The translations under genes and the position numbers were made by a program. Shown piece after piece: positions 14,575 through 31,140 of a DNA stretch of 64,000 nucleotides. Within the stretch, counting starts at the first letter, position 1; each line of letters opens with the position of its first letter. The notes under the pieces were generated by a model, which saw nothing but the letters and a program-made list of their open reading frames with translations, did no database searches and was not told the DNA's origin. This stretch comes from Candidatus Poribacteria bacterium (GTDB taxonomy: Bacteria > Poribacteria > WGA-4E > WGA-3G): NCBI GenBank assembly GCA_965215265.1, contig OZ244048.1, forward strand, positions 400,917-464,916, in the 5' to 3' direction.

Positions 14575-14945
14575 AAACTCTCCTCCGTTAAAAACGAATG
14601 ATTTCCATTTTTATAAGATGATAACACATCTCACAGAGATATGTCAAATCGAGGAGTAAGGGGTTCTGATTGATCGCTTGGTTCTGTGGAATTTTCACTA
14701 CCAACGTACAAAAAGGCAAGAAACCATCCGGTTTTTGGATAGGGCATTTATAGTAACATCAACAAAGGTGCAAAATTTTATCGTGCTGCAAAAATGTTTG
14801 CCCTATTAGTCAAGCGGCAAACCAATCACCGACAGAGGTCCCGCGTTTCGGCGAGACTAATACCTACAACCTATCAAGCCATGGGTAGAAAAACTGACAT
14901 CGGTATGTTCGAACGTGGAGATGGAAAAATTGGGTAATGTATCTG

Positions 14946-15650
14946 CTACACAAAAGGCTCAAGTAAAACTCGAAATTTATTGACACAAGAGGCCACGTTT
15001 TCTATTGGAAGCTCCTTAAAGTGTTGTGGCTTATGTATTTCTCTGTTCGATTTTCTATTACTATCAAGCAGAGTTATGATTTCCAGACTTACCGTCGGAG
15101 TGTGAGACAGTAACGTATGCGTTGATTCACTACCTAATTGCTCCGGTTTACTAACTTCTCCGTAATCTCCACCTAAACCATTCTCGAGCTGAAATACACA
15201 AAATAGCAGGTCTGGATAAAGTAACTTCGCGATTAACTCAAAATCTTTCAAGGTTCTTTTGAGCATAGCATTTTCTATATATGACTTGCACTCTATGCCT
15301 AGAATTAACTTGTCATCTATCTTTACTGCTCTATCCAACTCTATTTTATAAACATATCTTTCCTTATTCTGTTCAATATGATGCCGGATAGATTCAAGAG
15401 TTAGATTTTTAACATAATTTTCTTCGATAGTGATAGTTCTTGTCCGTTTTCGTATATCGAAGCGGTCAGTCTCACCCCCTACTTCATGCCATGCTAAATG
15501 GACTATAGCATCCACAATATTCTCTACTAGTGCACCTTTTGCTCCCCGAATCTGTCCTGGAGTCATCTCGTACATTGAATATATGCTGCTGTTGTACAAC
15601 TCAACTATTGATTGATAGTCTGGATAAGTAAGCACATCATAGGTAGCCAT
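14946..15650 (-). CDS. putative Type II restriction endonuclease (PD-(D/E)xK fold)
   Basis: Co-directional, immediately downstream of a DNA MTase. Candidate catalytic D...(D)-x(n)-E-x-K in DDKLILGIECKSY. 234 aa. Confidence 0.5.
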   Translation of the reverse strand: MATYDVLTYPDYQSIVELYNSSIYSMYEMTPGQIRGAKGALVENIVDAIVHLAWHEVGGETDRFDIRKRTRTITIEENYVKNLTLESIRHHIEQNKERYVYKIELDRAVKIDDKLILGIECKSYIENAMLKRTLKDFELIAKLLYPDLLFCVFQLENGLGGDYGEVSKPEQLGSESTHTLLSHTPTVSLEIITLLDSNRKSNREIHKPQHFKELPIENVASCVNKFRVLLEPFV

Positions 15651-15733
15651 TTAGCTGTTCCATATCTTACAAGTGATTTGTAACTGCTCCGATATCAAGA
15701 ATTAAAGCCCTGAAATGCTTAAGTCAAGTTCAC

Positions 15734-16621
15734 TTACACTAAAAGGCGTAACCTATCCTCCGCCGTTTGGCAGTATTCGGGCGAAATGTCTATACCTAAG
15801 AAATGACGTTGGCTTTTAAACGCTGAAACACAAGTTGTTCCAGTCCCCGCGAAAGGATCGAGAATAGTATCTCCTCGGAAACTGAACAGCTTCAACACCC
15901 GATTCGCGAGTTCCTCTGGAAACATCGCAGGATGTCTAAATTTTCGCATATCGCGTTCCGGTGCGATCGTCCATTTCGCCGAGACCCACCGTTTGAAAGA
16001 CTCAGCGTCAATATCCGCATCTTTTGGATGCCCCGACTTTTTCAAAGACCCTTTGCAAAATATCTCTAAAAACTCCCACGTATATTTAAGGTAGGGGCTC
16101 GAGGGGCTTTTCCAACTCCCCCAAGCAGTATACTTACAATTGTAGTGATTTTTCTCCCATAGAATTTCACCCTTCCAGATCAGCTTCTTCCGTATAAAGT
16201 ACTGTGAAATAAGATGATGTGTCGGAATGTAATCCGAAAATAGCGGCTGAACGTTAACAACGATGCGGCCCCCATATTTCAGTATTCTGATGCATTCATC
16301 AAAGATACCGAACAACACCCTGAAGTAAGCGTCCCATGCAAAGGCATCCTCGGTTCCCTCGTAATCCAGACCAAAGTTGTAGGGCGGCGATGTGAAAATG
16401 AGGTCTATGCAATTGTCAGGCAGCTGCGTGAGAACAGTCTGTGAGTCGCCGCAGATAATTGTATCGGTAAACTCAGCAGGTAGGACATTACTCTCCTGAC
16501 TAAAATCATGCGTATTGGCATAATAGTACTTCCCACGTGCTGCTTCTTTCTGTTTCCGATTCCTAACTTTTCGTTCCATCGTGTTATCTCTCTTTTTCAA
16601 ATTGTTCTTTTGCTCAAACAT
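15734..16621 (-). CDS. DNA methyltransferase, N4-cytosine/N6-adenine beta class (N6_N4_Mtase family)
   Basis: Motif IV IFTSPPY lies near the N-terminus. Motif I DPFAGTGTT lies near the C-terminus, followed by FLGIDIS; this is the beta-class order. Confidence 0.85.
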   Translation of the reverse strand: MFEQKNNLKKRDNTMERKVRNRKQKEAARGKYYYANTHDFSQESNVLPAEFTDTIICGDSQTVLTQLPDNCIDLIFTSPPYNFGLDYEGTEDAFAWDAYFRVLFGIFDECIRILKYGGRIVVNVQPLFSDYIPTHHLISQYFIRKKLIWKGEILWEKNHYNCKYTAWGSWKSPSSPYLKYTWEFLEIFCKGSLKKSGHPKDADIDAESFKRWVSAKWTIAPERDMRKFRHPAMFPEELANRVLKLFSFRGDTILDPFAGTGTTCVSAFKSQRHFLGIDISPEYCQTAEDRLRLLV

Positions 16622-17050
16622 AGATGCTCTCTATAAAGTCCGTTCTACTTCCTGCTACAGTTGTGGGCAGAAAATGAGTCGTACTCATCTCAACAGGCTA
16701 TCGAATAGTATCACAGTTCCTGAGAAAAGTCAAATCTATTGTTTGGAAAATATGCAAACGTCTACCGATAGAGGTGCTGCAGCACGTTGTCTCTGAACCT
16801 CACGAAAAACCGAAATGGTGCGTCGACTCCTGATTTTTGACCGACTCTGCCGCAAAAATGCCGCCCCTATGAGTAGAGCGGCAAACTAATCTCCAGCCCA
16901 TGTAAAACCGTAAAGCAGGAAAAATATTCTTCAGTCTCATCCTCCATTAGATTCGTAATTTGCTCTAAACTTCCCAATAGGTCGTGGTCTTTCCCTCCTT
17001 GCGAGATACATCCGCCTATACAACCTATAGAATTATAGAATCTTTAGCAT

Positions 17051-17506
17051 TCACGCCTCCTCTCGTAGTAATTCATCAATTGCGTCAGAAAGATTCCAGA
17101 TTGGATCATCCTTTCCATCTTGCAGCATCCTGGCTATATGGGGGACCCCCGCCGCAGCGAGCCCATTCGCGATAGTCATCATGCGCCGTGGATTTTCCAC
17201 AACTTGCACGTCATCATCAACTGCTATAGCAATTAACATTACTGTCTGGAACCGCCAACTGTCTCGGTCAAAGATTGAACCTTGGATGAACGTGAAAGTT
17301 TCCTGTTTGGATAGGTTGACTAGTTCGAGTTCCTTTCGCACTGCAAACGATAATCCTGCAAACCATAAATCAACCATTCGCGGGAAAGGGCTTCGATCTA
17401 CACTTGCCTGTCTACTTGTTTGGCAGTAACGATCATAAACATCGCGCTGAGTCTTAGGGGCGATTAAATCCATACTAGCAAAGGGATTATGATATTGCTG
17501 TGCCAC
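17051..17506 (-). CDS. hypothetical 151-aa protein, last gene of the putative PT-like defense operon (DndE-like by position only)
   Basis: 23 nt after the SMC-like ATPase gene on the same strand. No recognisable motif. Confidence 0.4.
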   Translation of the reverse strand: MAQQYHNPFASMDLIAPKTQRDVYDRYCQTSRQASVDRSPFPRMVDLWFAGLSFAVRKELELVNLSKQETFTFIQGSIFDRDSWRFQTVMLIAIAVDDDVQVVENPRRMMTIANGLAAAGVPHIARMLQDGKDDPIWNLSDAIDELLREEA

Positions 17507-17528
17507 TGTCTACCTCCTAAGATATTGG

Positions 17529-19637
17529 TTACACTTCTGTTTCTACATCCATTCGCCGCTGGCACAAGCGGCATTTCTTACGGTGATTGCATTCACACCG
17601 TAGTGTCTTACGTTGCTCTACCCGTGGATCATTAACTAAAATTCGCGGATAGTGTGCCGAGTTTGTCAACGTTATCACACGCCCTGCTTCTTCATCCAGA
17701 ATTTCTTCACAGTCTGCAATCTCGGAGCGCGTGAGAAATAGAATAAGCTGCGAGCTTTCCCGGATGGCAGTCCTAAGTACGGACCGCTTCACATAGCCGC
17801 TCATCATTCCGAGCGGTGTATCAAGCACATTCGGGGCTTCGACTTCACTAACCTTAGTTAGAGCAAGGATAAAGGCAAAGGTCAGTGCACGACGAGATGC
17901 ACCGTTAAGATCTTGGTCAGGGTTTAGCATTTGATTATTTAAACCGTAGACCAGAATATCATAATCCTTGCTGATTTCTGCCCTTTGAATGATCGCCCCT
18001 TGTTTTGGATCAGCACCGATCATTTCAAGAAAAATCTCGTTCATTTTACAGCTGACTTTCATCAATTCTTCATCTGTAATCCGGTCGTAGGACTTCTTCA
18101 GAACACTTTGTACATCGCGCGCCACATCCAGACTCGCAAGTATGTGTTTACCTTTCCTCTGTTTACTAAGAAGGTTATCGCGCCGCAATACCAAGCTTTT
18201 ACGCTCTTTTTTTAGTCCTTCAAGTTGTGTTTCAGCTCCCCCTAAACGACGGGAAAGGTGGGTCTTCTGGTCAGTGTAGTCCTGCTCGGTAGAGCGAAGA
18301 CCCTGAATATTGATGTCAGGTATAAGGTCCAACTGTGCTTCAAGATCCTTAAGTTTTTCACCTTGTTCATCGCGTTTCCTTTTAAGTTTATCTCGGCACT
18401 CCACGATTTTCTCGTACTCAGCAATCCAATCCTTATTGTTAGCGGTTTCATCCAGTTGCAAGTCACGCGAACCGTAATAGAGGTCAGTGAGCTTACTTTG
18501 AAGAACATCTGCTTGTTGGCTTTCATCAATCAGGCACTGGATGTGGTCTCTTCGCTTCTTGCCATCAACTGTCTGTGAATCTAACGACTCACCACAAATG
18601 CAAGTAATTCCCTGGAGACGCTCTTCCAAGACAGGAATGGTTGCACTAGGAATCTTGCCCTGAGTGTGCAACTTACTTAGCTTTTCAAGGCTTTTTTTCA
18701 ACGTCGGAGCAAGCAGGTCGCGTGAGAAGAACATACCTCTAAAAAGGTGAGAATGTTTTTGACCAGCAGCAGCGAGATTCTTGTCAAGTTGCTTTAGCTG
18801 CACCTTGGTTTCTGCAATATCGATTTTAAGTTTTTCCCGGTCGCCCTTAACTAATGCGATTTCAATTTGTTCCCGGGTTCCCTCAATTTGTTTATGAATC
18901 GCGGCAATCTGCGATTTATAATCGACTATGTTTTTCTCAAGCTTCCTATACGCGGTTTCTATCTCTTCCAATTCTGCAGCAACGCTTGTGAGTTCCTTAT
19001 GGATGTCAAGTGATTTTGCTGCTTTGTTGAAGTCAGAAATTGTCGTTTTTATATGTGACCTGGCCTTGTCAATGTAATTCAGTCCCAAAAGCGAACGGAT
19101 TGCTTTTTCAACGCGATCTCGCTTGATTTTTTCTGATGCAGTTGCTTCAATGAAACTGAGTGCTCGATCACCGTCAGTAAAGAACACCTCCCTTAGTTCA
19201 GGCGGAAGTTCTTCTTTAATCCGCACGTTAGGTTTATCCACGTCCTTGCTCCCCGTATCTGTTAATTCAAATAAACGGACCTCTGGATTATCCATTACAC
19301 CATCTAATTTTTCATAACCAGCCCGGATAATACGGTATCGTATAGTGTCATCCGGACCGCTCCGACTAAGCCTCTTTGTCTCAAATTCAACCTGTACAGA
19401 TATTGGAATTCGCTGACCATCTGCTGCGTCCCAATCGATCGGATGTAGACGGTAGTCTTTGCCCTTTTCTGGCAATGCATCATTACCATAAAGAGCCCAT
19501 TGAAGTCCATTGAGGATAGTGGTTTTTCCACTTTCGTTCTCTGCCCGAATAACCGTTAGCCTTTTATCCGTTGAAAAGTCTAACTTTAAATCACGTAGCA
19601 GACGGAAATTTTCAAATTGGGCACGGATAAGTTTCAT
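17529..19637 (-). CDS. SMC-like / DndD-like AAA ATPase with long coiled coil and Rad50-like CxC hook motif
   Basis: N-terminal FENFRLLRD...IRAENESGKTTILNGL (RecF/SMC_N-type Walker A). Long heptad-rich middle with TCICGE at the apex. C-terminal ABC signature/Walker B region and a Cys-rich tail (CECNHRKKCRLCQ). Confidence 0.7.
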   Translation of the reverse strand: MKLIRAQFENFRLLRDLKLDFSTDKRLTVIRAENESGKTTILNGLQWALYGNDALPEKGKDYRLHPIDWDAADGQRIPISVQVEFETKRLSRSGPDDTIRYRIIRAGYEKLDGVMDNPEVRLFELTDTGSKDVDKPNVRIKEELPPELREVFFTDGDRALSFIEATASEKIKRDRVEKAIRSLLGLNYIDKARSHIKTTISDFNKAAKSLDIHKELTSVAAELEEIETAYRKLEKNIVDYKSQIAAIHKQIEGTREQIEIALVKGDREKLKIDIAETKVQLKQLDKNLAAAGQKHSHLFRGMFFSRDLLAPTLKKSLEKLSKLHTQGKIPSATIPVLEERLQGITCICGESLDSQTVDGKKRRDHIQCLIDESQQADVLQSKLTDLYYGSRDLQLDETANNKDWIAEYEKIVECRDKLKRKRDEQGEKLKDLEAQLDLIPDINIQGLRSTEQDYTDQKTHLSRRLGGAETQLEGLKKERKSLVLRRDNLLSKQRKGKHILASLDVARDVQSVLKKSYDRITDEELMKVSCKMNEIFLEMIGADPKQGAIIQRAEISKDYDILVYGLNNQMLNPDQDLNGASRRALTFAFILALTKVSEVEAPNVLDTPLGMMSGYVKRSVLRTAIRESSQLILFLTRSEIADCEEILDEEAGRVITLTNSAHYPRILVNDPRVEQRKTLRCECNHRKKCRLCQRRMDVETEV

Positions 19638-19653
19638 TGGATAGCCCTCCTCC

Positions 19654-19878
19654 CTATTTTAGTTGATTCCGGCTCTCTGCAAGAGAGTCGCCAGTCTTTT
19701 GACAAATTTCGCGTATTTTTTGGTGAATAGGTGTCATCTTCAAAAGATGTTCCTTTTCGTGTTCGAGGATTTTATCTATGGCACCAGCAAGTTCCTCCTT
19801 GTACCCATCGTACCTTTCCTCAATAGATTGGCATTCATGAAAGATAATGTCAAAGATTTTTTGTCTATTGAACAGCAT
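19654..19878 (-). CDS. hypothetical 74-aa protein between the helicase and the SMC-like ATPase
   Basis: 12-nt and 17-nt gaps to its neighbours on the same strand. No motif. Confidence 0.35.
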   Translation of the reverse strand: MLFNRQKIFDIIFHECQSIEERYDGYKEELAGAIDKILEHEKEHLLKMTPIHQKIREICQKTGDSLAESRNQLK

Positions 19879-19889
19879 GATTCTCTCCT

Positions 19890-22025
19890 TTATAGATAAA
19901 TCGCTTTAACAAGTCGATCAATAATATCCAAAGGCCCATCAGTTCTACCTGCATTCAGAGCGAGTTTAGAAAATTTCATAACTCGCGAGAGTTCTGATTC
20001 AATAAGTTTGCGTGCCTCATCGTCGATATCATCCATGTTCGATGGCAATGCAATAAAATCGTGAATTTCGCTATGTGTCTTGTCAGTTTCACGACATGTC
20101 CGAAGGAGCCTCCCTCGACGCTGTACCCATTGCCGCTCTACTGTAGTACTGGCCAGGATGAACGCCTTTTTAATCTGCGGAATGTTCACACCTTCATCAA
20201 GCACGCGCTTTGCAGTCAGCACATGCAATGTCCCCTCCTGAAAGGATTGGATAATTTTCGCTGTTTTTTCACTGTTCGGTGTTTCCTTGTATGTGAGTTG
20301 GTGAAAAAGCACACCGCGTGCCTTCAATAAAGCATTGACAGCCTCAAGTTGCTGCGGTGCCTTGTCTGATGCGTAAATTAATGTGTACTGGAGTTGTCGA
20401 AACCCCTCACGTGTCAAGACCGCCTCCAACGCCTCGATCTTATTTTCCGCGTTCTCTAAGAGAGCACGCCTATCCCGAAGCAACTTCATCAGATACTCAT
20501 CAGTTTCATTTTCTTCCTTACGCCAAGAATTCGCCTTGATTTTTTCCGTAAGTGCATACCATTGGTCCATTTCGTCCTCTGTGAGTTCCACAGGATGAAC
20601 GTAATACTCGTATTCAACGAGGCATCGCCCGATTGCTTCCTCGAGCGTGAATTGGAAAACAACCGGACCGAAAAATGAGAACAGGACCTCTGTCCCGTGT
20701 TCATCATATTGACGGATCGGAGTTGCCGAAAGACCCAGCCTATAATCAAAAAAAGTCGGCAGGTCAGTGATGAATCTCTCACTTCCCAGATTGTGTACTT
20801 CATCCGCAATGAGCAAAGTCTTACAATCCATTTTTTTGATTTCCGTTTTAAACTCGCTATTGCATAGTGTAACATGAGAAACGACAACAATTTCAATGCC
20901 GCTTCTTCCAATTCGAAGCCGTCGTCTTATCTTATTAAGTTCACGTGCCCGTCCTCTTGCTCCTGTAGACGCTGTCAGATTAACAGCCGTGAGTCCAAAG
21001 GGCAAAATCTCATCACACCACTGTTGAATGAGCGGAATGTAGGGTGCTGCAACAACGATAAGCAGCGGCTTCTGCACATTGTAAAGCCTATGTGCACAAA
21101 TCATAGCAGTAATCGTTTTGCCTGAACCGGTCGCCATTTCTAAGATACCTTGATAATCCGCTTCGCACCACGCATCTACAGCCCTGCCTTGATGTTCAAA
21201 GGGGCCATCCTGAAATCGGAGTTCTGATGGTATTACAAATGAAGTACGAGACGAATCGTAATCGGCAGGAGATTCCTTTATCGAGCCAGTCGCCTGGTCG
21301 TAGAGTGTCCGAAAATCTGTCTCGGTTGGCGGGATGTCTGAACGATAAGTGTGAAGTAGATCGTCGCGAATAGCTTGGGGCATCTCAACCACGATACAAC
21401 TCTCAACCTCATTTTCCCAAAGTTGTTTGAACTGGTCACAAAACCTTTCTGTAGTGTAGTGCTGGGTAGGATCTTCCCAGGATTTAGAAATGGAAATTTG
21501 CTCAATATTCTTCTGAATACCGGCATAAGTCATATTGCTAGATCCGTGTGCTGCAATCACGTCATCACCTTTCCGAAAGAGCCAGACCTTTGGATGGAAG
21601 AGTGCATCTTTCATAACGGCTATCTTGATTTGGACGCGTCTCCTATGCAGCAGCCACGACAGACACTTCAGTGTATGTTGCGCAATAAGGTCTTCAGTGA
21701 CAAACATATCTTCTAAAATTGCATTAGCGCTATTTTCCGAAGAGGTTAGCCCTTCTTCTATTGCCTCCCTATCTTCAGAGCGGAGCAGAGGACTGATAAT
21801 TAAGCGAAAACTCTCCTCTGAGGAGTTGATAAAGGTTGCCAAGCCCGGGGCTAGCGACACGAAGATGTCGCTAGAAAAGAATCCCATCATGCCATCAACT
21901 TGAGTCGCTGACTGAAAGCAAGGGATCAGGACCTCTTCAGACACCGGATCGTCAGGTAGTATGTAGAGAGGTCTAATATTAGGCACAGCCTGAAGCGTCA
22001 TCTCATTAAGCTCCAACATCTTCAT
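19890..22025 (-). CDS. PLD-family (HKD) nuclease domain fused to an SF2 DEAH-box helicase
   Basis: HPKVWLFRKGD...HGSSNMTYAG resembles an HxK...GSxN PLD motif. The helicase has Walker A MATGSGKT and DEAH-like LIADEVHNLG, then helicase-C motifs (VLTAKRVLDEGVNIP, QRRGRLLR). Confidence 0.7.
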   Translation of the reverse strand: MKMLELNEMTLQAVPNIRPLYILPDDPVSEEVLIPCFQSATQVDGMMGFFSSDIFVSLAPGLATFINSSEESFRLIISPLLRSEDREAIEEGLTSSENSANAILEDMFVTEDLIAQHTLKCLSWLLHRRRVQIKIAVMKDALFHPKVWLFRKGDDVIAAHGSSNMTYAGIQKNIEQISISKSWEDPTQHYTTERFCDQFKQLWENEVESCIVVEMPQAIRDDLLHTYRSDIPPTETDFRTLYDQATGSIKESPADYDSSRTSFVIPSELRFQDGPFEHQGRAVDAWCEADYQGILEMATGSGKTITAMICAHRLYNVQKPLLIVVAAPYIPLIQQWCDEILPFGLTAVNLTASTGARGRARELNKIRRRLRIGRSGIEIVVVSHVTLCNSEFKTEIKKMDCKTLLIADEVHNLGSERFITDLPTFFDYRLGLSATPIRQYDEHGTEVLFSFFGPVVFQFTLEEAIGRCLVEYEYYVHPVELTEDEMDQWYALTEKIKANSWRKEENETDEYLMKLLRDRRALLENAENKIEALEAVLTREGFRQLQYTLIYASDKAPQQLEAVNALLKARGVLFHQLTYKETPNSEKTAKIIQSFQEGTLHVLTAKRVLDEGVNIPQIKKAFILASTTVERQWVQRRGRLLRTCRETDKTHSEIHDFIALPSNMDDIDDEARKLIESELSRVMKFSKLALNAGRTDGPLDIIDRLVKAIYL

Positions 22026-22054
22026 TTTTTAGACATAATCAAATTTAATAAAAA

Positions 22055-22873
22055 CTACTTATAACAAATCAGACACGGTTCCTCATCGTCTTCATCGTCG
22101 TGCACATCCGTAAGGATATCTATCAGCCGCCGATTCGGACGAGCCGCCCGCTTCGCCGCCTTCGACTCTTCAGCATGTGCCTTAATCTGCTCAATGCGTT
22201 CCGGGTCCGAAAGCTCGTCTAAACTCTCGCTCTGACACCATGTGAACCGTTCACCGGTATCAGGGTCAAATTTCTCGTATGCCTTGGCGAGTTCAAAAAG
22301 GTCGGGATGTTTCTCCAGCAACCCTACCCACTCGGATTTACGCTGGAAGAAGCAGAAATAGCACCCGGAACGCGTCCGCCAATCGTAATAGTCCGGCATC
22401 CCGAGCCCACTCTCCTCCAGAATGCGGTAGACATCCTGTTTCGTGATACCATCTTCCTTAAAAGGATATTTCGGCTCAATGTTTCGCAACTCCGCGTTTT
22501 TCAGCGGCTTATAACCGACGCGATCCTCATCTGCACGAATCGCGATGTAGTTGTACGCCTTGTCGTCACCGACATATCTCTCAAACGGTTTAATCTTGAG
22601 ATTGACGGTACACCAACGCACCTGTGGCGATGGCAACAAGCCCCCTAAAACCGTCAACCAGTGATCGAAATCCCGCTCCGTATTCAGACGGGCGATCGGT
22701 TTGCCGAGGAACGCCTCCAGCCGATCCAAAAACGCATACGTCTCCGGCAATTCTTTCCCAGTATCTGAGAACACATATTCCATCTCCGGCACCCGGTCAC
22801 GCATATAAATCGCGAGTGCAGAACTATCTTTCCCACCGGAGAGCCCAAGAATGTGTCGTCTCTGCTGTTCCAT
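22055..22873 (-). CDS. PAPS-reductase-family PP-loop ATP pyrophosphatase (DndC/SspD-like)
   Basis: PP-loop LGLSGGKDSSAL near the N-terminus. Start chosen at MEQQRR, preceded by RBS GGAGG; the ORF track's longer version overlaps the upstream gene. Confidence 0.75.
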   Translation of the reverse strand: MEQQRRHILGLSGGKDSSALAIYMRDRVPEMEYVFSDTGKELPETYAFLDRLEAFLGKPIARLNTERDFDHWLTVLGGLLPSPQVRWCTVNLKIKPFERYVGDDKAYNYIAIRADEDRVGYKPLKNAELRNIEPKYPFKEDGITKQDVYRILEESGLGMPDYYDWRTRSGCYFCFFQRKSEWVGLLEKHPDLFELAKAYEKFDPDTGERFTWCQSESLDELSDPERIEQIKAHAEESKAAKRAARPNRRLIDILTDVHDDEDDEEPCLICYK

Positions 22874-22883
22874 GTTTTCCTCC

Positions 22884-25800
22884 CTATTCTTGAAGTTGTT
22901 GCATCCATTTCTGTGCAATTCGTGCGAAAATAGCGACGCGAAGCTCAAGGGTATCAGTGCCCATCCCAAACTGCTTAAAGACCTCATCAATAGCCTTTTC
23001 TATTTCGGAAGCCTGCTTATCAGCCGCTGATGGTAAAGTGACGACCCGCTCCTGTTCGGCTTGGTGAGGCCGTGTAATGCCGACCCGAACAGGTTCACTA
23101 GATGACGGCTGACGGCACGCTTGTTCTTCATAAGAAACGGCTTCAAAATGATGGAATTGTCGCGCGAGCGTCGAAAGATTCATCTCAAATAGAGCGTTAT
23201 CTTCGTCATTCCAAGATCTCGGCGGTTTGTTAGCTACATAGAGCGCCACTGCCTCAAGCCAGTCAGTGCGATTCCGAAGCTTGCCATCGCAGACTCGACG
23301 GAGAAATCCGTTGAGCCTCCCCCCAACGGTAATTTCCAACAGCGGCTCTGCTCTGCGAACCAGTACACGCTGAAGCTCTTTCTCGTCTTCCAAAGCGAAC
23401 GTCGTCTTAAGTCGTTGTTCAATCGAATTCAACAGACTCTCGTAGACCTGCCGCAATTCAGATAAAACCTCCTGTAGTCTGCTGCAGAAGTCCGAAACTA
23501 CCTGCGAGTCCACGATTTCCGGGCTGAAAACCGGAAATCCGAGGGCCTTCGGCAGCTCCCCAAAAAGCAGCTCATCCGGTTCACGCGCATTCGTAACCGA
23601 TGTACGCAGCCTCTTAGCTTCATCGCTCAACTCCTCCGTTTTCAAAGTGTAGTCTGGAAGTTGTGCAATAAATTGCATAAGCGGTGCAACCACCGTCAAT
23701 AAATCAGGTTCTCCAGGTTCCGACGATTGACGGAGTACCTTCAGAAATTGCTCGAACAACTCGCCCCGGATAGCTGTCATCCGGAAGCGCTTGATCTCAA
23801 ATCGTTGCGGCATTTTAAGCAGCCGCTCAAAAAGCGGCACTGACCATTCCGGGGCAAAGCCCCCATTTTCGTAGAGCGCGATTTCCGACTTGTAATGCAG
23901 CAGAGCAGCACACAACAGAATCGGCAGCAGACCATTTCGAACACCGTAAGGCTCGGCCTCTAAGCATTTATAGAGAGCTACTACCGGTTGCCGCTCGCCT
24001 TCACACTCCTCAAGAAACGCATCTATTTCTCCCCACACGGGCATCAGACTTTCTTCCGTTGGCGGACAAAACCCCCACATGTCCGAAACTTTGCGATGCA
24101 TGCCCGTACTCTCTAACACAGAACGGTAGATGCTCATTTCAGCCGGGTAACCGTTGATGCCGAGGTTTTCCATGTCACTCCTCTCAAGCATCGCCTCAAT
24201 CAATTTTCTTCGGGCAGTCGCCGCTGTCGCAGAAATACTACGTCTATTGATGAGCTCATTACGAATAATAGGTGTCCCAGGGTAAACCTGCTTACAGATT
24301 TCTGACAAATATCTGTTCCGCGCACGTTGGGAGTTGATACTTTCTACAGGTTTCCCTTTGTGGTACCAGAGACAAGTTTTATCTCTATCCTTGTCGCCCT
24401 TAAAAATTTCGGTTAGTTGACCGGACACTGCGCGTTCTGCTTCCATCTGCCGCAGGAGGAGCTCCCGTCTTGCAACTGCATCGCCCTCCAATTCCGGGGT
24501 GTTTTCCGCAACCCAATGTAGACAGGCAAGTTCAAAGACAACCTCTTGCAGCGACTCGATCGAACGTGGAATCGCAACCAACACCGCCGCGTGCGCGACA
24601 CTGTCCATGCCGCACGCCTTCTCAATGAACTGATCGACCTGTTCCTGCGTCGCAGGTAGCGTGTAAAGGATCAGACCGTCCGCATCCTCGAACGGTTCAC
24701 TCAGATCTGCCTCGAAGTTCTCAAGATTGGTGTACCGAACAGTGAAATGACGGAGGGTCCCTGTCTCAAACAGATGCTGCCGTGCAACGAGCGGACGCGG
24801 TTGTGTATAGCGCGAGAGGTCTGCAGCAAGCACTAACTCCGAACCAATATGGGCCGCGGCTTCGCGGAGCCGTACCTCAATATCAATATCACTCCCTTCC
24901 CAAAGGGCGTAGGTGTCATTGTAACGACGGTATATCACAATGGATCGCCTTTTCAGATCTGCAAGCGCCTCCTCAAATCCTCCTCCGTTAGCGTCTAACG
25001 CATAACGCAGCATTTGTGCTGAGGCTTTCAGCTCAGGAATCCCTGTGTTAACAACATTGAGTAACCCAATAGTTTTAATCAGACGAAGCGCTAACGGTGA
25101 AGGATCCGATAAGCAATCTAAGGCAGATTCAATTTCTACCCATTTTTTCCCGTTATGAGAAGCATAAAGCCGATGCCCTTGTGTAGTATGAAGGTAGTCA
25201 TACAGTTCAGCGAGCGAAAACAGAGGCAGAACCTCTCCATCGTAAGATTCTGATGCCAAAAAGTCTTGTAGCCCATGCGGTTCGCTTGAACTCAGGAAAG
25301 CAAAGAGCGAACGTTCATTCTGTGAGAACCGCCGGAAAAGCGGCCCGATCATGAGGGCCACCGTCGGATGCAGCGGCAGACAACTCTTCAATAACAAAAT
25401 AAATTCGTCTTCATTCAATTGGCGCGGTTTTAGTCCTAAAGCAATTGCATTGTTAAGATTAGGCGGCACGACAACCTCTGGATGCCGCACCAATGCCGCA
25501 CTAATTAACCGAAGCACCTGCTCAGTCGGCTCCGTAAACACCACATCCTCGAACCGGCCCTGAACCTTCGCCCACTCTTCTCGTTGTGACCTACTCGCAC
25601 GTTCCACGTAAAATTCAAAAGCTTGATGCAGGATCGTCATCAGGAAGAACGGTGCCGGCGTACTGCGATCCGCCAATTCGGCGAGGCTCTGCAGAACAAA
25701 TATATCTGCTTGTGCCGGACGATCCGCAGCATATTCGAGAAACTTTCCCAGCTCGTCAACCACCACCAGCAGCCCGGAACCTCCAGCATCACAAATTTGA

Positions 25801-26363
25801 CGTGTCGCCGATTCAAATAGCGCAGTTATCTCAGAGGCAGACGGCGAACCCCCATTTGCTACCATTTCTTTCAGGTTGTCGAGAACCGCAGCAGCACCCC
25901 AATCGCCGTTTGAACGACTGAGCCCATGCTGCAGACCCCGCAGCAGACTACGCGTAAGCGGCGCACGTTCCCCCGAAATCAACACAGGACAGAAACCAGA
26001 TGACGACACCGCCCCCTTACCGTTTGCACCGACAGATACGAATCGCGCATGCAGCTCAGCATCACCCGCCTTCAGGATTTCTAAAGCCTGGCGCGCCGCG
26101 GAAGTGTCACGGGCACCGAGTAACTGTGCCGCAAAGAGTGCAAATGCCGACTTCCCCGAACCATACGGGCCCGTCAGAGACCACGCCTTTGAACCACGTT
26201 CGTTTTCAAACGTAGAAACCACACGCCCCAACATATCCCGCGCACTCACAGTCAAAACGTACCCATCCAGAACGCTCTCCGTGTAGAAATCGCGCTCCAG
26301 ATGCACCGAACGCCTAAAACGCCCCCTAATCTGAAAAATATCTGACAACAAGGTGTTACTCAT
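22884..26363 (-). CDS. large P-loop NTPase (1159 aa; KAP/BrxC/SspC-like ATPase)
   Basis: Walker A LTGPYGSGKSAF and Walker B LLVVVDELGKF in the first 250 aa, with a long alpha-helical C-terminal region. A 4-nt overlap couples it to the upstream DUF4007-like gene. Confidence 0.6.
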   Translation of the reverse strand: MSNTLLSDIFQIRGRFRRSVHLERDFYTESVLDGYVLTVSARDMLGRVVSTFENERGSKAWSLTGPYGSGKSAFALFAAQLLGARDTSAARQALEILKAGDAELHARFVSVGANGKGAVSSSGFCPVLISGERAPLTRSLLRGLQHGLSRSNGDWGAAAVLDNLKEMVANGGSPSASEITALFESATRQICDAGGSGLLVVVDELGKFLEYAADRPAQADIFVLQSLAELADRSTPAPFFLMTILHQAFEFYVERASRSQREEWAKVQGRFEDVVFTEPTEQVLRLISAALVRHPEVVVPPNLNNAIALGLKPRQLNEDEFILLLKSCLPLHPTVALMIGPLFRRFSQNERSLFAFLSSSEPHGLQDFLASESYDGEVLPLFSLAELYDYLHTTQGHRLYASHNGKKWVEIESALDCLSDPSPLALRLIKTIGLLNVVNTGIPELKASAQMLRYALDANGGGFEEALADLKRRSIVIYRRYNDTYALWEGSDIDIEVRLREAAAHIGSELVLAADLSRYTQPRPLVARQHLFETGTLRHFTVRYTNLENFEADLSEPFEDADGLILYTLPATQEQVDQFIEKACGMDSVAHAAVLVAIPRSIESLQEVVFELACLHWVAENTPELEGDAVARRELLLRQMEAERAVSGQLTEIFKGDKDRDKTCLWYHKGKPVESINSQRARNRYLSEICKQVYPGTPIIRNELINRRSISATAATARRKLIEAMLERSDMENLGINGYPAEMSIYRSVLESTGMHRKVSDMWGFCPPTEESLMPVWGEIDAFLEECEGERQPVVALYKCLEAEPYGVRNGLLPILLCAALLHYKSEIALYENGGFAPEWSVPLFERLLKMPQRFEIKRFRMTAIRGELFEQFLKVLRQSSEPGEPDLLTVVAPLMQFIAQLPDYTLKTEELSDEAKRLRTSVTNAREPDELLFGELPKALGFPVFSPEIVDSQVVSDFCSRLQEVLSELRQVYESLLNSIEQRLKTTFALEDEKELQRVLVRRAEPLLEITVGGRLNGFLRRVCDGKLRNRTDWLEAVALYVANKPPRSWNDEDNALFEMNLSTLARQFHHFEAVSYEEQACRQPSSSEPVRVGITRPHQAEQERVVTLPSAADKQASEIEKAIDEVFKQFGMGTDTLELRVAIFARIAQKWMQQLQE

Positions 26364-27352
26364 TCTTCCCCTTCTTTGTCATAATACTGCTTTAAAAGTC
26401 GCATCGACTCTGAATCACACCGACTATCGCGATGGAAAAGTCGCATCGACTCGGAACCACACCGACTATCGCGATGGAGCTGCTTTAAACCTGCAGTATC
26501 ATCATATCGCAGTACACCCGCGGTAAGTTCTTCAAGCCTATCGAGATACAGAGTCATCGTGTCTTCATCTATTCTGAAAATTCGTCCCGGACTTAAGGGT
26601 TCATACATCAGCTCTTGGAAGCGCAATGTGTTCGCTGCAGAAAAACGTTTATCCCAAAACGCAATCAGCGTCGCCGTAAAGAGCTCGACCGGTAAAGTCT
26701 CTTTTCTCCCACGCTGGAACTCATAGCCCGCACCCTCCGGCAACTCACCGATTAAGTTGAGCTCAACAAGCGGACAAGCAAAAGTCTCCTCAACTAAGGC
26801 AGCGTTAAAACTATCAGGTGAAGCGCAATACGTCCGAATAAAACAAGTCACATCGCGCCGAAATGTATTGTCAGAAACAGGCCGCTTCGATACCCGCTGC
26901 TGCGATGCCCACTTCGACAATTCCGTTATAAAGGTGTCAAATGTGAATCGATTCTCCTTAAAAATGTTAAATGCCCAATACCACGTAGTAGCCTGGTTGA
27001 TATGAGTTGCAATCTGCCAATGAATGAACCACAGAGTAGCAGGGTCATCGAGGTACGGATCAAATCCGTCTTTCCCAAAAAAAGCCTCGCCGAGCTCTGT
27101 TGGCACAAATACCCCGGGTTGACGTGATACTGTCTCAATAAGTCCAGATACTCTGCACCAGTACCGAATAGAATCCACCATGTTTTTTCCGACACCTAAA
27201 GTGACGGAAGCCTCCTGCGATGAAAAAACATCCGGATCCTCGATTACCGCATCGACACCTTTCTTCAACCACATGTATCGCATCGGAAACGTCTGATGGC
27301 CTGAAAAGGACAGATTTCTTACTTGTGAAGGGTTGAAGCGTAGGTTACTCAA
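26360..27352 (-). CDS. DUF4007-like protein (SspB-like), first gene of the PT-like operon
   Basis: The N-terminal FSGHQTFPMRYMWLKKG motif is one I associate with DUF4007 proteins that sit beside PAPS-reductase and ATPase genes in Ssp-type clusters. This assignment is from memory. Confidence 0.5.
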   Translation of the reverse strand: MSNLRFNPSQVRNLSFSGHQTFPMRYMWLKKGVDAVIEDPDVFSSQEASVTLGVGKNMVDSIRYWCRVSGLIETVSRQPGVFVPTELGEAFFGKDGFDPYLDDPATLWFIHWQIATHINQATTWYWAFNIFKENRFTFDTFITELSKWASQQRVSKRPVSDNTFRRDVTCFIRTYCASPDSFNAALVEETFACPLVELNLIGELPEGAGYEFQRGRKETLPVELFTATLIAFWDKRFSAANTLRFQELMYEPLSPGRIFRIDEDTMTLYLDRLEELTAGVLRYDDTAGLKQLHRDSRCGSESMRLFHRDSRCDSESMRLLKQYYDKEGEE

Positions 27353-27550
27353 ATTTTGCCCCCAAAAATGTACAAATCCTCAGCACATGCAGCCCTGGGG
27401 GCAAAAAATTGAGAATAAGCGATAGAGAGACGGTACAACAAAAACAGCCCGCAGCCGGTGCCATCAACCAATATGACACACGAGCGCACGGACAAAAAAT
27501 CGGCAAATGCCAATAACGTTTTACTTAATAAAATACTTAACGAATGTGAA

Positions 27551-27560
27551 TTGGGGGGGG
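27551..27560. repeat. G10 homopolymer tract in the leader/promoter region of the PT-like operon
   Basis: attgggggggggg, about 200 nt upstream of the operon's first start codon (minus-strand orientation). Confidence 0.9.
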
Positions 27561-27869
27561 GGTCGTGGCCTGTTAAACCTTGTGTACGAGAGGGATCTCG
27601 TGGAATTAACGACCGACAGCAATTGCAACCGGACGCTGGTACTGTTTTAAATCTAGGACTAATATGTTTATTCTTCATCTACTTTACCGGTTAGATGTGA
27701 GGGAGTATAACTTAAACCAGAATGGAAAATAATTGAGATAATACACATTTTTCTGTTCTTCGGGTCATATTTACCTATATTATACCTTAAACTGCAAATC
27801 TGTTCAAACTATTTCCCGGATTTGTCACGTTTTGTTTTATTATATGAATTATCAAATTCTTGTGCGATT

Positions 27870-28736
27870 CTAGCCTTTAAACACCTCTCTTAGGTGCCAA
27901 TCTATAAATTCTTCGTTCGGGTAATCCATCTGGCTATGAGGAAAACTAATTTCTTTTCCGTGGAATCTCATTAGCCATTCTTCAAAACCGGCTGACCCGT
28001 CTGCATCCTCAGATACCACTATTGTCAACTCCTCGGACAATGCAAAGGCCCCCCGGTCGAACAACTTATGATGTAGCGAGCAGAGAGCCATGCCATTCTC
28101 TGCTATATCCGGTCCATCCGCCATGCGCCATTTGATATGAGCCGCCTCTAAAGCGACAGGACGAGCTCGTAACGTTACATTAAATCCACAAATCGCACAC
28201 TCGTGGTTATAAGCATCGAGGATACGGTGCCGGAATTTAGGATCACGGGGCTGCCAGAACGATCCGAAAGATAGTTCAATGCCGACAGCTTGTAAAATAT
28301 CTTCATGGTATGAGATTGGAAAATGAGAAGCTAGCAACCGCCCAGTTATTTCAAAAACTAAACCCAAATCGCTTTTAAGTTTTTCGGCAATCGCTGCCGG
28401 AAAGCTACCGACACCGTACTCCCTCAAATCGGTGACGTACGCATCTCCACTAGCAGTCTGCTGAATTCTATGTGCATCGGATACTTGCCAGATGTCGTCG
28501 TTTTGCAACCGCCAAAATGGCTGCTCAGGGTGATACCTTTGGCACCACGGTCCAAACTCTTTTAGTAAGTCCTTGAGTTCCTTTTCAGCTTCTGCAAATG
28601 GGATGTACTCAGTTTCGCTGTTCAGCAATTTGCCTATCGCATAAAGTAGCAGCAACGGCTTATGAGGCGCTCTTTCGCCGCCGCTTTTCCATACATTCAA
28701 GTCCTGAAATTTCTGAATAATTGATTCTCTGTCCAT
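27870..28736 (-). CDS. HNH endonuclease-domain protein (288 aa) with an uncharacterised N-terminal domain; possible modification-dependent (Type IV-like) nuclease
   Basis: C-terminal HNH core HECAICGF...EAAHIKW...ALCSLHHKLFDRG. Confidence 0.7.
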   Translation of the reverse strand: MDRESIIQKFQDLNVWKSGGERAPHKPLLLLYAIGKLLNSETEYIPFAEAEKELKDLLKEFGPWCQRYHPEQPFWRLQNDDIWQVSDAHRIQQTASGDAYVTDLREYGVGSFPAAIAEKLKSDLGLVFEITGRLLASHFPISYHEDILQAVGIELSFGSFWQPRDPKFRHRILDAYNHECAICGFNVTLRARPVALEAAHIKWRMADGPDIAENGMALCSLHHKLFDRGAFALSEELTIVVSEDADGSAGFEEWLMRFHGKEISFPHSQMDYPNEEFIDWHLREVFKG

Positions 28737-28811
28737 TTTCTATCTTCTTAGCTATAGAAGAGTTCCATTTTCTCTCTGCTGCGAATCAGGATGCGATATA
28801 AACAAAGAAAT

Positions 28812-29651
28812 TCAACTTGTAAAAGTGGAATTCTGCTCTGTTTTATCTTCAATTTCCAGGAAATCCTCGTGCCTTTCTTCCAAGAGATTCGCTAACGCTT
28901 CTTCCATGGAATCCTCGGATGCTTCAGCATGATTCATCACAAATTCCCATGCAATATAGTAGATATTATCTAAGTCAAAATCTGAGGGGTGGTAACGGTC
29001 GAAATGAGCGATATCACAAGTATAAAGAATTTCCCCTACGTAATCAACCGCTCCATCGGGGAGTTCTGCGAGCATCTGTGCGGTTGTTACATCGTCCACC
29101 TTTATCTCGTATTTTTTGCTAATGTACTGTTTAATGACACGCGCAATTATTTTGTGGTATTCGGCAATTGCATCCTTCTCACGCAGGGCATAAGCATCTT
29201 CAAGCTGGCTGAGTGCTTGATCTTCAAAGGGCTTGCCGTCACCCAATGTTAGCGGACTTCTGCGCCGCTGCGGATTTGGCTGTCCCTTGCTTACCGTTCG
29301 TGCTCTTCTTGGACTTTGCGGGCTTCTATGCACGTGCTGAAGCTTCTCACGGTGCGCTTGCCGGTTGCGGCGGACACGCGAGCGAAGAACCAGCGCACCT
29401 GCCGCGAGAATGATGAGACACGCTGGTAAAACAACCCACAAAAGAGTGCTGACGATATCCATGAGTTGATATGGACTAGCACGGAGTCCAGCCGCGTTCT
29501 CCATCTGGTTTCCTACGGTTTGCGAGAGAAACCCAACAGTTCCAAAATAGCCGGTGGAAGATCGGCTTTTGCGTGTCTCGCTGTTTTGTATCGTGCTTGC
29601 CAGAGTTGTGCCACACGCAAAAACTCGCCTAATCTTCATGGCATAGCCCAT
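28812..29651 (-). CDS. hypothetical membrane-anchored protein
   Basis: Hydrophobic segment LLWVVLPACLIILAAGALVL followed by an Arg/Pro-rich linker and a soluble domain. Start trimmed to avoid overlap with the regulator gene. Confidence 0.4.
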   Translation of the reverse strand: MGYAMKIRRVFACGTTLASTIQNSETRKSRSSTGYFGTVGFLSQTVGNQMENAAGLRASPYQLMDIVSTLLWVVLPACLIILAAGALVLRSRVRRNRQAHREKLQHVHRSPQSPRRARTVSKGQPNPQRRRSPLTLGDGKPFEDQALSQLEDAYALREKDAIAEYHKIIARVIKQYISKKYEIKVDDVTTAQMLAELPDGAVDYVGEILYTCDIAHFDRYHPSDFDLDNIYYIAWEFVMNHAEASEDSMEEALANLLEERHEDFLEIEDKTEQNSTFTS

Positions 29652-31140
29652 ATTCTTTTGCTTTCCTTTGAATGGTTCGGCGGCTGATTTGCAAAATTTT
29701 CGCCGCTTTCGCTTTGTTATTCTCTGCATATTCAAGTGTGGCACGAAGAGCCTCGCGGCTAATTTCGTCAAGTGACATGCCGACCTCCACATTAATGCGC
29801 GGCACAATGCTGCTGCTCGAATCTAACGTCCGAAGCGTCGGTAAGAACGGCATCTCTGAGACACCTTGATCTCCCTCAAAAAGCGGAGGAACCTTCTGAT
29901 TCAGCGCAATGCTGCTTTCAGGTTCATATTGGGAAGACTCATGTTCCGCTAAGGTCTTCTCAAGGATGCGCTCAGGTAGTTCAGCCTGTTGTATCGCTGA
30001 CTGTGTAGACATAACCACAAGCCCCTCAATACAATTTTTCAATTCTCGCACATTTCCAGGCCAGTCGTACTTCATTAACGTTCTAATCGCCGGGGTTGTC
30101 ATCTTCATCAAAGCTTTTCCGTTTTCCCGACAAAATTCTGCGAGAAAATCTTTGACGAGCAGCGGAATATCTTCTACCCGTTCTTTAAGTGTCGGGAGGT
30201 TAATCCGGATAACGTTGAGCCTGTCGTAAAGATCTGGGAGGAACGTGCCGTTTTGGCATGCCGACTCCAAATCATGGTTCGTTGCACAGACGACCCGCAC
30301 GTCAACTTTAATCGTTTTACTCCCGCCCATCCGTTCAAATTCTCGTTCTTCGAGGACACGCAGCAAACGTGCCTGATTGGATAAACTGAGTTTCGAGATT
30401 TCATCCAAGAAGAGCGTGCCACCGTGTGCAAGCTCAAACCTGCCTTTGCGTTGATAATAAGCCCCGCTAAACGAACCACGTTCATGACCAAAAAGTTCGG
30501 ATTCCGCAAGGTTCTCGTTGAGCGTCGCACAGTTAAAAGCGATGAGCGAACCACGCCGCAAACTGCGATGATGAACCGCACGAGCAACGAGCTCTTTACC
30601 TGTCCCACGCGCACCGTAGATAAGCACCGTCGCTTTTGTCGGCGCGACTTGCGTCACCATCTCACGGATCCTGATGATTTGCGGGGACTGACCGGTCAGA
30701 CGCCGTAAGCCCTCATTTTCGTCTATTTGCGATTGCAACTGGCGGTTCTCAAACTTTAGACGTTGACTTTGGAGCGTTCTCTGCAGCAGCGCCCTCAGGT
30801 GAACAGGATTCACCGGCTTCGGCAGAAAATAGGTCCCTTCATGCACTGTCATCGCTTTGATGCCGATATCAGTCTCCAAAATATTGGAAGCCGTGATGAA
30901 AATCACACCTATATCCGGATGGTGCTGCATCGCCGCTTCTAACAAACTTAACCCATCAATCCGTTCCGCTTTCAGTGTCGCAATCAGGATATCCGTTTTC
31001 AGATGCTCAAGCTGATAAAATGCTTGATACATGTTGCTCGTCACAACTAAATTGAGCCCCTCTTCACCGAGCGTTTGGCAGACTAGCTCGCGTTGCCGTG
31101 GGTCGGCATCTACAATCAGCACGGTTTTCTGTGTATTCAT
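29629..31140 (-). CDS. sigma-54-dependent response regulator (NtrC family: receiver + AAA+ + Fis-type HTH)
   Basis: N-terminal receiver, Walker A GARGTGKE, GAFTGA-like ESELFGHERGSFSGA, and a C-terminal HTH. Confidence 0.85.
   Translation of the reverse strand: MNTQKTVLIVDADPRQRELVCQTLGEEGLNLVVTSNMYQAFYQLEHLKTDILIATLKAERIDGLSLLEAAMQHHPDIGVIFITASNILETDIGIKAMTVHEGTYFLPKPVNPVHLRALLQRTLQSQRLKFENRQLQSQIDENEGLRRLTGQSPQIIRIREMVTQVAPTKATVLIYGARGTGKELVARAVHHRSLRRGSLIAFNCATLNENLAESELFGHERGSFSGAYYQRKGRFELAHGGTLFLDEISKLSLSNQARLLRVLEEREFERMGGSKTIKVDVRVVCATNHDLESACQNGTFLPDLYDRLNVIRINLPTLKERVEDIPLLVKDFLAEFCRENGKALMKMTTPAIRTLMKYDWPGNVRELKNCIEGLVVMSTQSAIQQAELPERILEKTLAEHESSQYEPESSIALNQKVPPLFEGDQGVSEMPFLPTLRTLDSSSSIVPRINVEVGMSLDEISREALRATLEYAENNKAKAAKILQISRRTIQRKAKEYGLCHED

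Follow-up and report, generated by a model that had tools for sequence, protein, structure and literature searches.

The 64,000-nucleotide stretch of Candidatus Poribacteria DNA analysed here (contig OZ244048.1 of assembly GCA_965215265.1; hereafter the window) contains a seven-gene minus-strand operon, at 17051-27352, that is probably a composite phosphorothioate (PT) modification-restriction system, in which an SspBCD writer is joined to a PbeABCD restrictor. What is directly observed is the family to which each gene belongs, the integrity of the motifs, the organization as an operon, and the repeated occurrence of the two gene sets in linkage. Each half is canonical and stands in canonical order; only the combination is new. 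No description of the pairing of SspBCD with PbeABCD was found in the open-access full-text literature, where the modules are listed separately and beyond which an earlier mention is possible, and PbeABCD has been characterised only together with DndCDEA (PMC6459918). A preliminary description of the locus had already proposed a PT-type modification-restriction operon with SspB-, SspC-, and SspD-like genes, which the matches of all three proteins to the corresponding PADLOC profiles now support. The Dnd-like modification components that it also invoked are not of Dnd type, as the phospholipase D (PLD)-helicase, the 74-aa open reading frame (ORF), the CxC ATPase, and the 151-aa ORF make up the described PbeABCD cassette. 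Its caveat that every gene might fall into an already characterised system with the same gene order thus holds for each module taken separately and not for the composite.

Organization of the operon

Seven co-directional minus-strand ORFs are present at 17051-27352, all at the coordinates given in the preliminary description, with computed spacings of, in order, -4 (the overlap of sspC with sspB), 10, 29, 11, 16, and 22 nt. Their tight packing into one unit is confirmed in the same order, each positive gap having previously been given 1 nt too large. A promoter-like site on the minus strand (27779-27807; TTGAAC-17-TATAAT, 10/12) lies upstream of sspB, within the 517-nt spacer that follows the neighbouring gene for a nuclease with a sulfur-binding domain (SBD) and an HNH domain (SBD-HNH). 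This site (27807-27779) is the top-scoring minus-strand sigma-70-like site in the 14.2 kb scanned (14800-29000), although it is a match to a sigma-70 consensus only, which may not be that of the host, and the overall number of such sites in the region is not above shuffle expectation. Approximately 170 nt after pbeD stands the strongest terminator-like site of the scanned region (16859-16883, minus strand, read from 16883 to 16859; again a consensus match only), a hairpin with a 9-bp stem, 6 G-C pairs, and a T run. The top promoter-like and top terminator-like sites therefore flank exactly the seven genes.

In the proteins considered below, the residues important for catalysis and structure show little or no variation among 27-31 homologues, so that the operon is under purifying selection and is no decayed remnant. 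A 109-aa ORF at 27349-27678, which overlaps the start of sspB, was considered and is probably not a gene, being of low complexity with a single weak match in the relatives. A scan of the whole window against Rfam for a leader RNA matched no family, and a tRNA scan for island borders found none.

The SspBCD writer

The first gene, sspB (26360-27352, minus strand), encodes a DUF4007 protein of the family that supplies the DNA-recognising and nicking subunit of the Ssp PT writer (Pfam DUF4007, PF13182, 1.7e-86; PADLOC SspB, 1.8e-97), and its sole match among PDB sequences is solved SspB (6juf/6lb9; E = 1e-31). Translation starts at a TTG codon, preceded by a GGGGG run that resembles a Shine-Dalgarno sequence. 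The C-terminal tail of the protein, which lies beyond the DUF4007 domain, contains a repeated segment of 14 aa that is encoded by an in-frame tandem duplication of 42 bp (26394-26478; 2.0 copies, 95% match).

The second gene, sspC (22884-26363, minus strand), encodes an 1159-aa, BrxC-related P-loop ATPase, with Walker A (GPYGSGKS, at residue 65) and Walker B (LVVVDE, at residue 199) motifs. The earlier perception of this protein as an oddity, a "second giant NTPase", does not survive comparison with PADLOC SspC (E = 0, 1098.8 bits), where residues 12-1075 cover positions 1-1053 of a 1054-position model: it is a canonical, full-length SspC. Judged by sequence, SspB and SspC are nevertheless divergent from the characterised Ssp proteins, SspB giving only 113 bits to solved SspB.

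The third gene, sspD (22055-22873, minus strand), encodes a 272-aa PP-loop sulfurtransferase of the PAPS-reductase fold (PADLOC SspD, 2.7e-116; Pfam PAPS_reduct, PF01507, 2.8e-08). The SGGKDS motif recognised at the outset, like the Walker motifs of SspC, is located in the protein; its S, G, G, D, and S are invariant in 27/27 homologues, while the K is retained in 24 and replaced by R in 3, and five Cys residues are likewise invariant in all 27. The mechanically called ORF begins at TTG 22990 (311 aa); since the profile matches only from residue 45 and homologues measure 272 aa, the start is ATG 22873, as the preliminary description had it.

SspB, SspC, and SspD of the SspABCD set are thus present, and an adjacent SspA is not. 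No Aminotran_5 domain was found among the 38 window ORFs scanned against Pfam, and tblastn searches of the window with SspA (from three relatives), SspE, and DndB of related loci gave no match, in agreement with the initial impression that the window encodes no cysteine desulfurase. The SspABCD-SspE/SspFGH systems of Vibrio and E. coli (PMC8092258) employ the same writer, with SspB, SspC, and SspD in B-C-D operon order, and share with the present locus an optional unlinked cysteine desulfurase and the use of one writer for alternative or multiple effectors. They differ in that the effector here is the four-gene PbeABCD, neither SspE nor SspFGH. The original remark that no SspE- or DndFGH-type restriction partner occurs in the window is therefore correct as to those proteins, but a restriction partner is present.

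It is highly improbable that the locus encodes some other PP-loop-dependent, non-PT DNA modification or a system resembling type 4 BREX (bacteriophage exclusion). SspC and BrxC are homologous (SspC also matches the PADLOC BrxC model at 3.4e-187), and BrxP has been described as an SspD-SspB fusion (bioRxiv 10.1101/2024.06.03.597175); nevertheless, all three writer proteins score far higher on the PADLOC Ssp models than on those of BrxP and BrxC, a PADLOC scan of 18 proteins from the operon and its neighbourhood detected no PglZ or BrxL, and relatives of the locus are accompanied by genes for a cysteine desulfurase, SspE, DndB, and SBD proteins, each of which points to sulfur. BREX type 4 proper was rejected on the same scan, as SspD and SspB are separate proteins and match BrxP weakly.

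The PbeABCD restriction cassette

Directly downstream, pbeA (19890-22025, minus strand) encodes an HKD (PLD-family) nuclease domain fused to a superfamily 2 (SF2) helicase (PADLOC PbeA, 3.5e-199; Pfam PLDc_2, ResIII, DEAD, and Helicase_C), with a match below cutoff to TIGR04095, "DNA phosphorothioation system restriction enzyme" (5e-114). The PLD-helicase fusion that had been recognised is thus an effector of known type; its helicase box reads DEVH, not DEAH. The PLD domain carries HxK (H144, K146) and GSSN, with the canonical Asp displaced; H144, K146, and N164 are invariant wherever aligned (29/31 homologues), and the helicase residues GK-T and D-E-H of the DEVH box are invariant in 31/31.

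The small gene pbeB (19654-19878, minus strand) encodes a 74-aa protein with a conserved IEERCDGY motif, assigned by its position and sequence conservation. No profile match was obtained in Pfam, PADLOC, or NCBIfam, for which libraries no PbeB profile exists; a homologue in the same position, alignable along its length, occurs in 29 related loci. On sequence inspection only, PbeB appears conserved and helical, not fast-evolving or disordered.

The gene pbeC (17529-19637, minus strand) encodes a coiled-coil ATP-binding cassette (ABC) ATPase with a CxC hook, a member of the sister clade of DndD (PADLOC PbeC, 1.8e-48; Pfam AAA_23 and AAA_15). The hook predicted beforehand is located at C346-I-C348, both cysteines being invariant in 30/30 homologues; G-K-T of Walker A is invariant or nearly so, and the DTP Walker B region is invariant in 30/30. 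A C-terminal CxC-x5-C-x2-C cluster (C681/683/689/692), also invariant in 30/30 homologues, is a probable second zinc site beside the mid-coil hook; it is not mentioned in those portions of the literature that were available.

The last gene, pbeD (17051-17506, minus strand), encodes the cognate of PbeC, a 151-aa DNA-binding protein with the fold of DndE. This DndE fold, which upholds the earlier placement of a DndE-like gene in last position, was found by fold comparison only: searches of PDB, Pfam, and NCBIfam with the single sequence and with a 43-member profile gave no sequence-level match.

All four components of PbeABCD are thus present, while the place of its DndCDEA partner is taken by SspBCD. 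Canonical DndABCDE membership was rejected, given that SspD scores 22.1 bits on the DndC model TIGR03183 (cutoff 290.4) and is no DndC, that PbeC scores 121.9 bits on TIGR03185 (cutoff 245.85) and remains below the DndD equivalog, and that no DndE sequence match at the NCBIfam level occurs in the operon. The closest characterised counterpart of the cassette is the DndCDEA-PbeABCD system of Haloterrigena jeotgali (PMC6459918), which corresponds to the CxC ABC-ATPase/DndE/HKD-SF2/small-protein system of a comparative study (PMC10853773). It has the same A-B-C-D order, proteins of similar length (PbeB of 66 aa and PbeD of 152 aa, versus 74 and 151 aa in the window), an HKD nuclease with an SF2 helicase, a CxC hook, and a DndE-fold partner. 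In contrast, the writer in the window is of the Ssp type, with an ORC/Cdc6-like ATPase and a triple winged helix-turn-helix (wHTH) SspB in place of DndC/D/E/A, and one transcription unit comprises both modules; the mark that Pbe would read here is probably single-stranded, as opposed to double-stranded in DndCDEA-PbeABCD.

Recurrence of the Ssp-Pbe pairing

Conservation in relatives had been named as a check at the outset, and it was found to be extensive. A scan for PbeA across one genome per species yielded 29 loci, to which further loci were added from other look-ups. The 29 derive mostly from metagenome-assembled genomes (MAGs) of Candidatus Poribacteria, the remainder from Latescibacterota, Dehalococcoidia/Chloroflexota, Rhodospirillaceae, Acidobacteriota, and the isolate Oleispirillum naphthae Y-M2. 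When the window proteins were mapped onto the loci, all seven ssp and pbe genes were found linked in 21 other loci, from Poribacteria and other probably sponge-associated MAGs, Oleispirillum, and Sphingomonadaceae and Rhizobium plasmids, so that the arrangement is not a product of chance.

Most of these loci are colinear, the seven-gene order being shared by Poribacteria, Latescibacterota, and the Sphingomonadaceae plasmid, and in Dehalococcoidia, Caldilineaceae, Acidobacteriota, Oleispirillum naphthae, and a conjugative plasmid of Rhizobium indigoferae the genes have been rearranged but remain linked. In four loci (L019, L024, L030, and L031) the ssp genes follow pbeABCD or occupy the other strand. 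The Sphingomonadaceae plasmid (CP099618.1), from the cultured strain OTU29MARTA1, reads sspA-B-C-D-pbeA-B-C-D with genes that overlap or abut throughout, ssp/pbe junction included, and on the Rhizobium indigoferae plasmid PbeC-D-A is convergent with SspA-B-C-D. Other plasmids examined carry a canonical DndCDE-A with PbeABCD and DndB, a methylase-linked Pbe, or a solitary Pbe. Locus L002 shares synteny with the window on the side of the pbe genes, where genes for glucosamine-6-phosphate isomerase and AP endonuclease 2 are 82-85% identical; nearest relatives and flanking-gene similarity together point to a Poribacteria-like host that is probably a sponge symbiont, and a megablast search of complete E. 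coli genomes with the locus gave no match.

The genes that accompany the pairing in relatives are also informative. A class-V aminotransferase of the cysteine desulfurase type (SspA) stands beside sspB in four of them (L024, L030, L032, and L050), DndB occurs in two (L019 and L025), and a DUF262-HNH protein occurs in one (L029). In L014 (7588-9912), a full-length SspE (PADLOC, 7.7e-284) lies between sspD and pbeA, so that one SspBCD writer is encoded with two effectors, SspE and PbeABCD, in one array. The presence of SspA, SspE, DndB, and the DUF262-HNH protein points to sulfur (PT) chemistry.

Proposed mechanism and its alternatives

On the composite reading, PT would be placed on host DNA by SspB, which recognises and nicks it, together with the ATPase SspC and the PP-loop sulfurtransferase SspD, the persulfide sulfur being supplied by an IscS-type cysteine desulfurase encoded elsewhere in the genome in lieu of SspA. 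Characterised Ssp systems leave a single-strand mark at 5'-CpsCA-3'. It is documented for Ssp that IscS can stand in for SspA and that different effectors can draw on the same SspBCD writer (PMC8092258). For the writer in the window, the PT chemistry and a motif of this kind are what we infer. PbeABCD, encoded downstream on the same transcript, would then act on DNA that lacks the mark: the CxC ABC ATPase PbeC and the DndE-fold PbeD may scan or loop DNA, PbeA may translocate on unmarked DNA and attack or block it through its HKD nuclease and SF2 helicase, and PbeB may be an essential accessory or a regulator. SBD-HNH would probably form a third layer, directed at DNA with PT in a foreign sequence context. 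That Pbe should depend on PT in this locus is expected from Haloterrigena jeotgali, where DndCDEA makes the PT mark, PbeABCD affords approximately 10^4-fold PT-dependent protection, and all four pbe genes are needed (PMC6459918).

Several observations weigh against this scheme. The Dnd-Pbe system blocked viral replication without detectable cleavage of viral DNA, despite an intact HKD motif (PMC6459918); the role of CxC/Pbe as a PT-dependent restriction module has been questioned (PMC10853773); and sspA is missing from the window by both the Pfam scan and tblastn. For 22 loci, the correlations between pairwise-identity matrices are 0.94-0.98 inside the Ssp module and 0.69-0.91 inside the Pbe module, but 0.54-0.74 between modules, and Latescibacterota loci combine PbeA that is 73-75% identical with SspC that is only 24-25% identical, from which it follows that the modules have been exchanged and have not strictly co-evolved. 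Close PbeABCD relatives in L020, L027, and L028 have no PT gene within 10 kb, and other PbeABCD sets occur with a methylase or alone. From the writer side, the closest SspD relatives retrieved with SspD (16 metagenome loci) lie mostly away from Pbe.

An alternative explanation is that two independent systems share a defence island and a transcript, SspBCD being an orphan epigenetic or protective writer, or one that serves SBD-HNH, and Pbe not reading PT at all. PbeABCD would in that case be a self-contained CxC-ATPase conflict system, its HKD nuclease triggered by infection, for example through loss of PbeB as an inhibitor, leading to abortive infection. PbeABCD relatives without PT genes or with methylases, the lower cross-module correlation, and the evident swapping of modules all favour such independence. 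Most SspBCD loci, moreover, have no known effector (PMC8092258), a suicide model and a decoupling of modules have been proposed for CxC systems (PMC10853773), and the surrounding region of the window is a defence island that also holds a type II restriction-modification (R-M) pair and a type IIG-like methylase. We nevertheless regard independence as unlikely, albeit as an explanation to be taken seriously, because the spacing here is operon-tight and the ssp/pbe junction overlaps or abuts in the Sphingomonadaceae plasmid, because residence in a common island would not by itself readily account for a linkage that persists through inversions and changes of gene order in distant phyla, and because the only experimental test of PbeABCD showed PT dependence (PMC6459918).

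Variant loci

Upstream of pbeABCD in L001/L003 (5071-9879) and L012 (331-3449), and also in L018 and L031, lies a variant writer in which GHKL ATPases, substituting for SspB and SspC, flank an SspD 76-82% identical to that of the window. The first of these ATPases is a HATPase_c_3 protein of approximately 570 aa with a weak MzaB match, the other a HATPase_c protein of approximately 634 aa with no PADLOC match; no description of such a GHKL-SspD module was found in the literature. Locus L007 (9145-15000) contains a five-gene sspD-pbeABCD unit in which sspD stops 2 nt short of pbeA; neither SspB/C nor a GHKL gene is close by, and sulfatase-maturation and PhyH genes stand upstream on the other strand; this unit could be a minimal system or a remnant.

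A second PT-writing assembly might be sought in these arrangements, with SspD serving PbeC and PbeD as equivalents of DndC/D/E in addition to SspBC, so that SspBC-SspD and PbeCD-SspD would both write PT and PbeA would be the sole restriction component. PbeC and DndD are in sister clades and PbeD is folded like DndE (PMC10853773), sspD adjoins pbeA in colinear loci, in L007 pbeABCD is immediately preceded by SspD while SspB and SspC are absent from the vicinity, and GHKL ATPases replace SspBC in L001/L003 and L012. We consider this improbable, however, since in Haloterrigena DndCDEA produces the mark and defence requires the pbe genes (PMC6459918), the scores of PbeC and SspD on the NCBIfam models of DndD and DndC are far under the cutoffs, the L007 genome could hold SspBC elsewhere, and PbeABCD also occurs without any PAPS-reductase.

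Further away from Pbe, the closest SspD relatives of all (79-82% identity), on metagenome contigs L033-L036 (e.g., L034, 8001-10839), are orphans followed by one or two SBD-HNH genes, with no SspB, SspC, or Pbe within 8 kb and with housekeeping genes in the flanks where these were checked (L034 and L035). The recurrence suggests an SspD and SBD-HNH pair. SspD relatives at 57-61% identity occur mostly in SspB-C-D sets without Pbe.

The SBD-HNH neighbour and the flanking defence genes

Directly upstream of sspB, a gene at 27870-28736 (minus strand) encodes the 288-aa SBD-HNH protein. Its N-terminus matches the SBD of ScoMcrA (5zmm/5zmo; phmmer, E = 1.8e-07) and SBD-Spr (7cc9), its C-terminus matches Pfam HNH_2 (7.6e-12), and the orthologue in L002 carries PF26340 (DNA-SBD_ScoMcrA). 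Orthologues with 49-62% identity occur in 11 related loci, in 10 of them upstream of sspB and in L010 at another place, and they retain the PHKP, xPFWRL, and HNH residues. In the window protein, Gln replaces the Tyr of the YP sulfur-pocket motif, a position that varies among its relatives (Y, H, F, or Q).

From its domain content, the architecture is of the type found in PT-dependent type IV restriction enzymes, which cleave PT-modified DNA (PMC7461809). The protein shares with ScoMcrA, SprMcrA, and EcoWI the SBD and HNH arrangement, the HK sulfur-recognition motif, and the HNH catalytic residues (PMC7461809). Such enzymes, however, adjoin dnd clusters in fewer than 3.6% of cases and are expected to avoid them (PMC7461809), so that a conserved position beside a PT writer is notable and sets the window protein apart from ScoMcrA-type enzymes. 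The simplest reading of its role would be that of a type IV enzyme directed against PT where the surrounding sequence differs from that of the host's marks. A three-domain HNH nuclease with an SBD (wHTH/SBD, SAD(SRA), and HNH) has also been reported among nucleases of Dnd neighbourhoods (PMC10853773).

Beyond SBD-HNH, a 331-aa ORF (28812-29807, minus strand) has no Pfam or PADLOC match and no homologue in the related loci, and it overlaps the gene for a sigma-54 enhancer-binding response regulator (RtcR/PspF-like; 29629-31140, minus strand) by 179 nt; its TTG start is probably wrong. On the plus strand, at 33943-36300, a 785-aa Eco57I/TaqI_C-type methyltransferase is another element of the defence island; it matches only the C-terminal two-thirds of type IIG restriction endonuclease-methyltransferase models, and no nuclease domain was detected.

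On the other side of the operon, a classical type II R-M pair lies directly downstream of pbeD (14946-16621, minus strand), composed of an N6_N4 methyltransferase (295 aa) and a type II restriction endonuclease (234 aa; PADLOC, 6.6e-54). The methylase was considered as a Pbe-linked methyltransferase, in keeping with the CxC variant that has one, and was rejected, as it pairs with the adjacent endonuclease and is separated from pbeD by a 429-nt gap that holds the terminator-like site. In L002 an IS605 OrfB/TnpB gene takes the place of the R-M pair, which identifies this flank as a variable defence hotspot.

Implications

PbeABCD is the least understood of the PT-linked effectors, having been tested in one archaeal system while its PT dependence has been questioned on comparative grounds. 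The recurrent Ssp-Pbe operon shows that this effector is not bound to Dnd-type double-strand marks. As 320 of 553 pbeAC loci are reported to lack dnd genes (PMC6459918), SspBCD is a plausible modification partner for part of them; the comparative study of CxC systems, in the part available, mentions neither an Ssp pairing nor GHKL partners (PMC10853773). The pairing is moreover present in cultured and tractable sources, namely the Sphingomonadaceae plasmid, the plasmid of the Rhizobium indigoferae type strain (CIP 108029), and Oleispirillum naphthae.

A bolder generalisation, which we put forward tentatively and regard as possible but doubtful, is that Ssp-Pbe constitutes a distinct and widespread class of PT defence, in which a single-strand Ssp mark would gate an HKD-helicase/CxC-ATPase effector, and which would explain many "solitary" pbeAC loci for which the 2019 survey found no modification partner (PMC6459918). 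In Poribacteria this class would be three-layered, with SBD-HNH functionally tied to SspD, and SspD may have been re-partnered with GHKL ATPases or PbeCD to yield new PT writers. Finally, sponge metagenomes are enriched in PT and other defence genes (PMC5099237), and the operon adds to the heavy, layered investment in DNA defence that is seen in MAGs of sponge-symbiont phyla.

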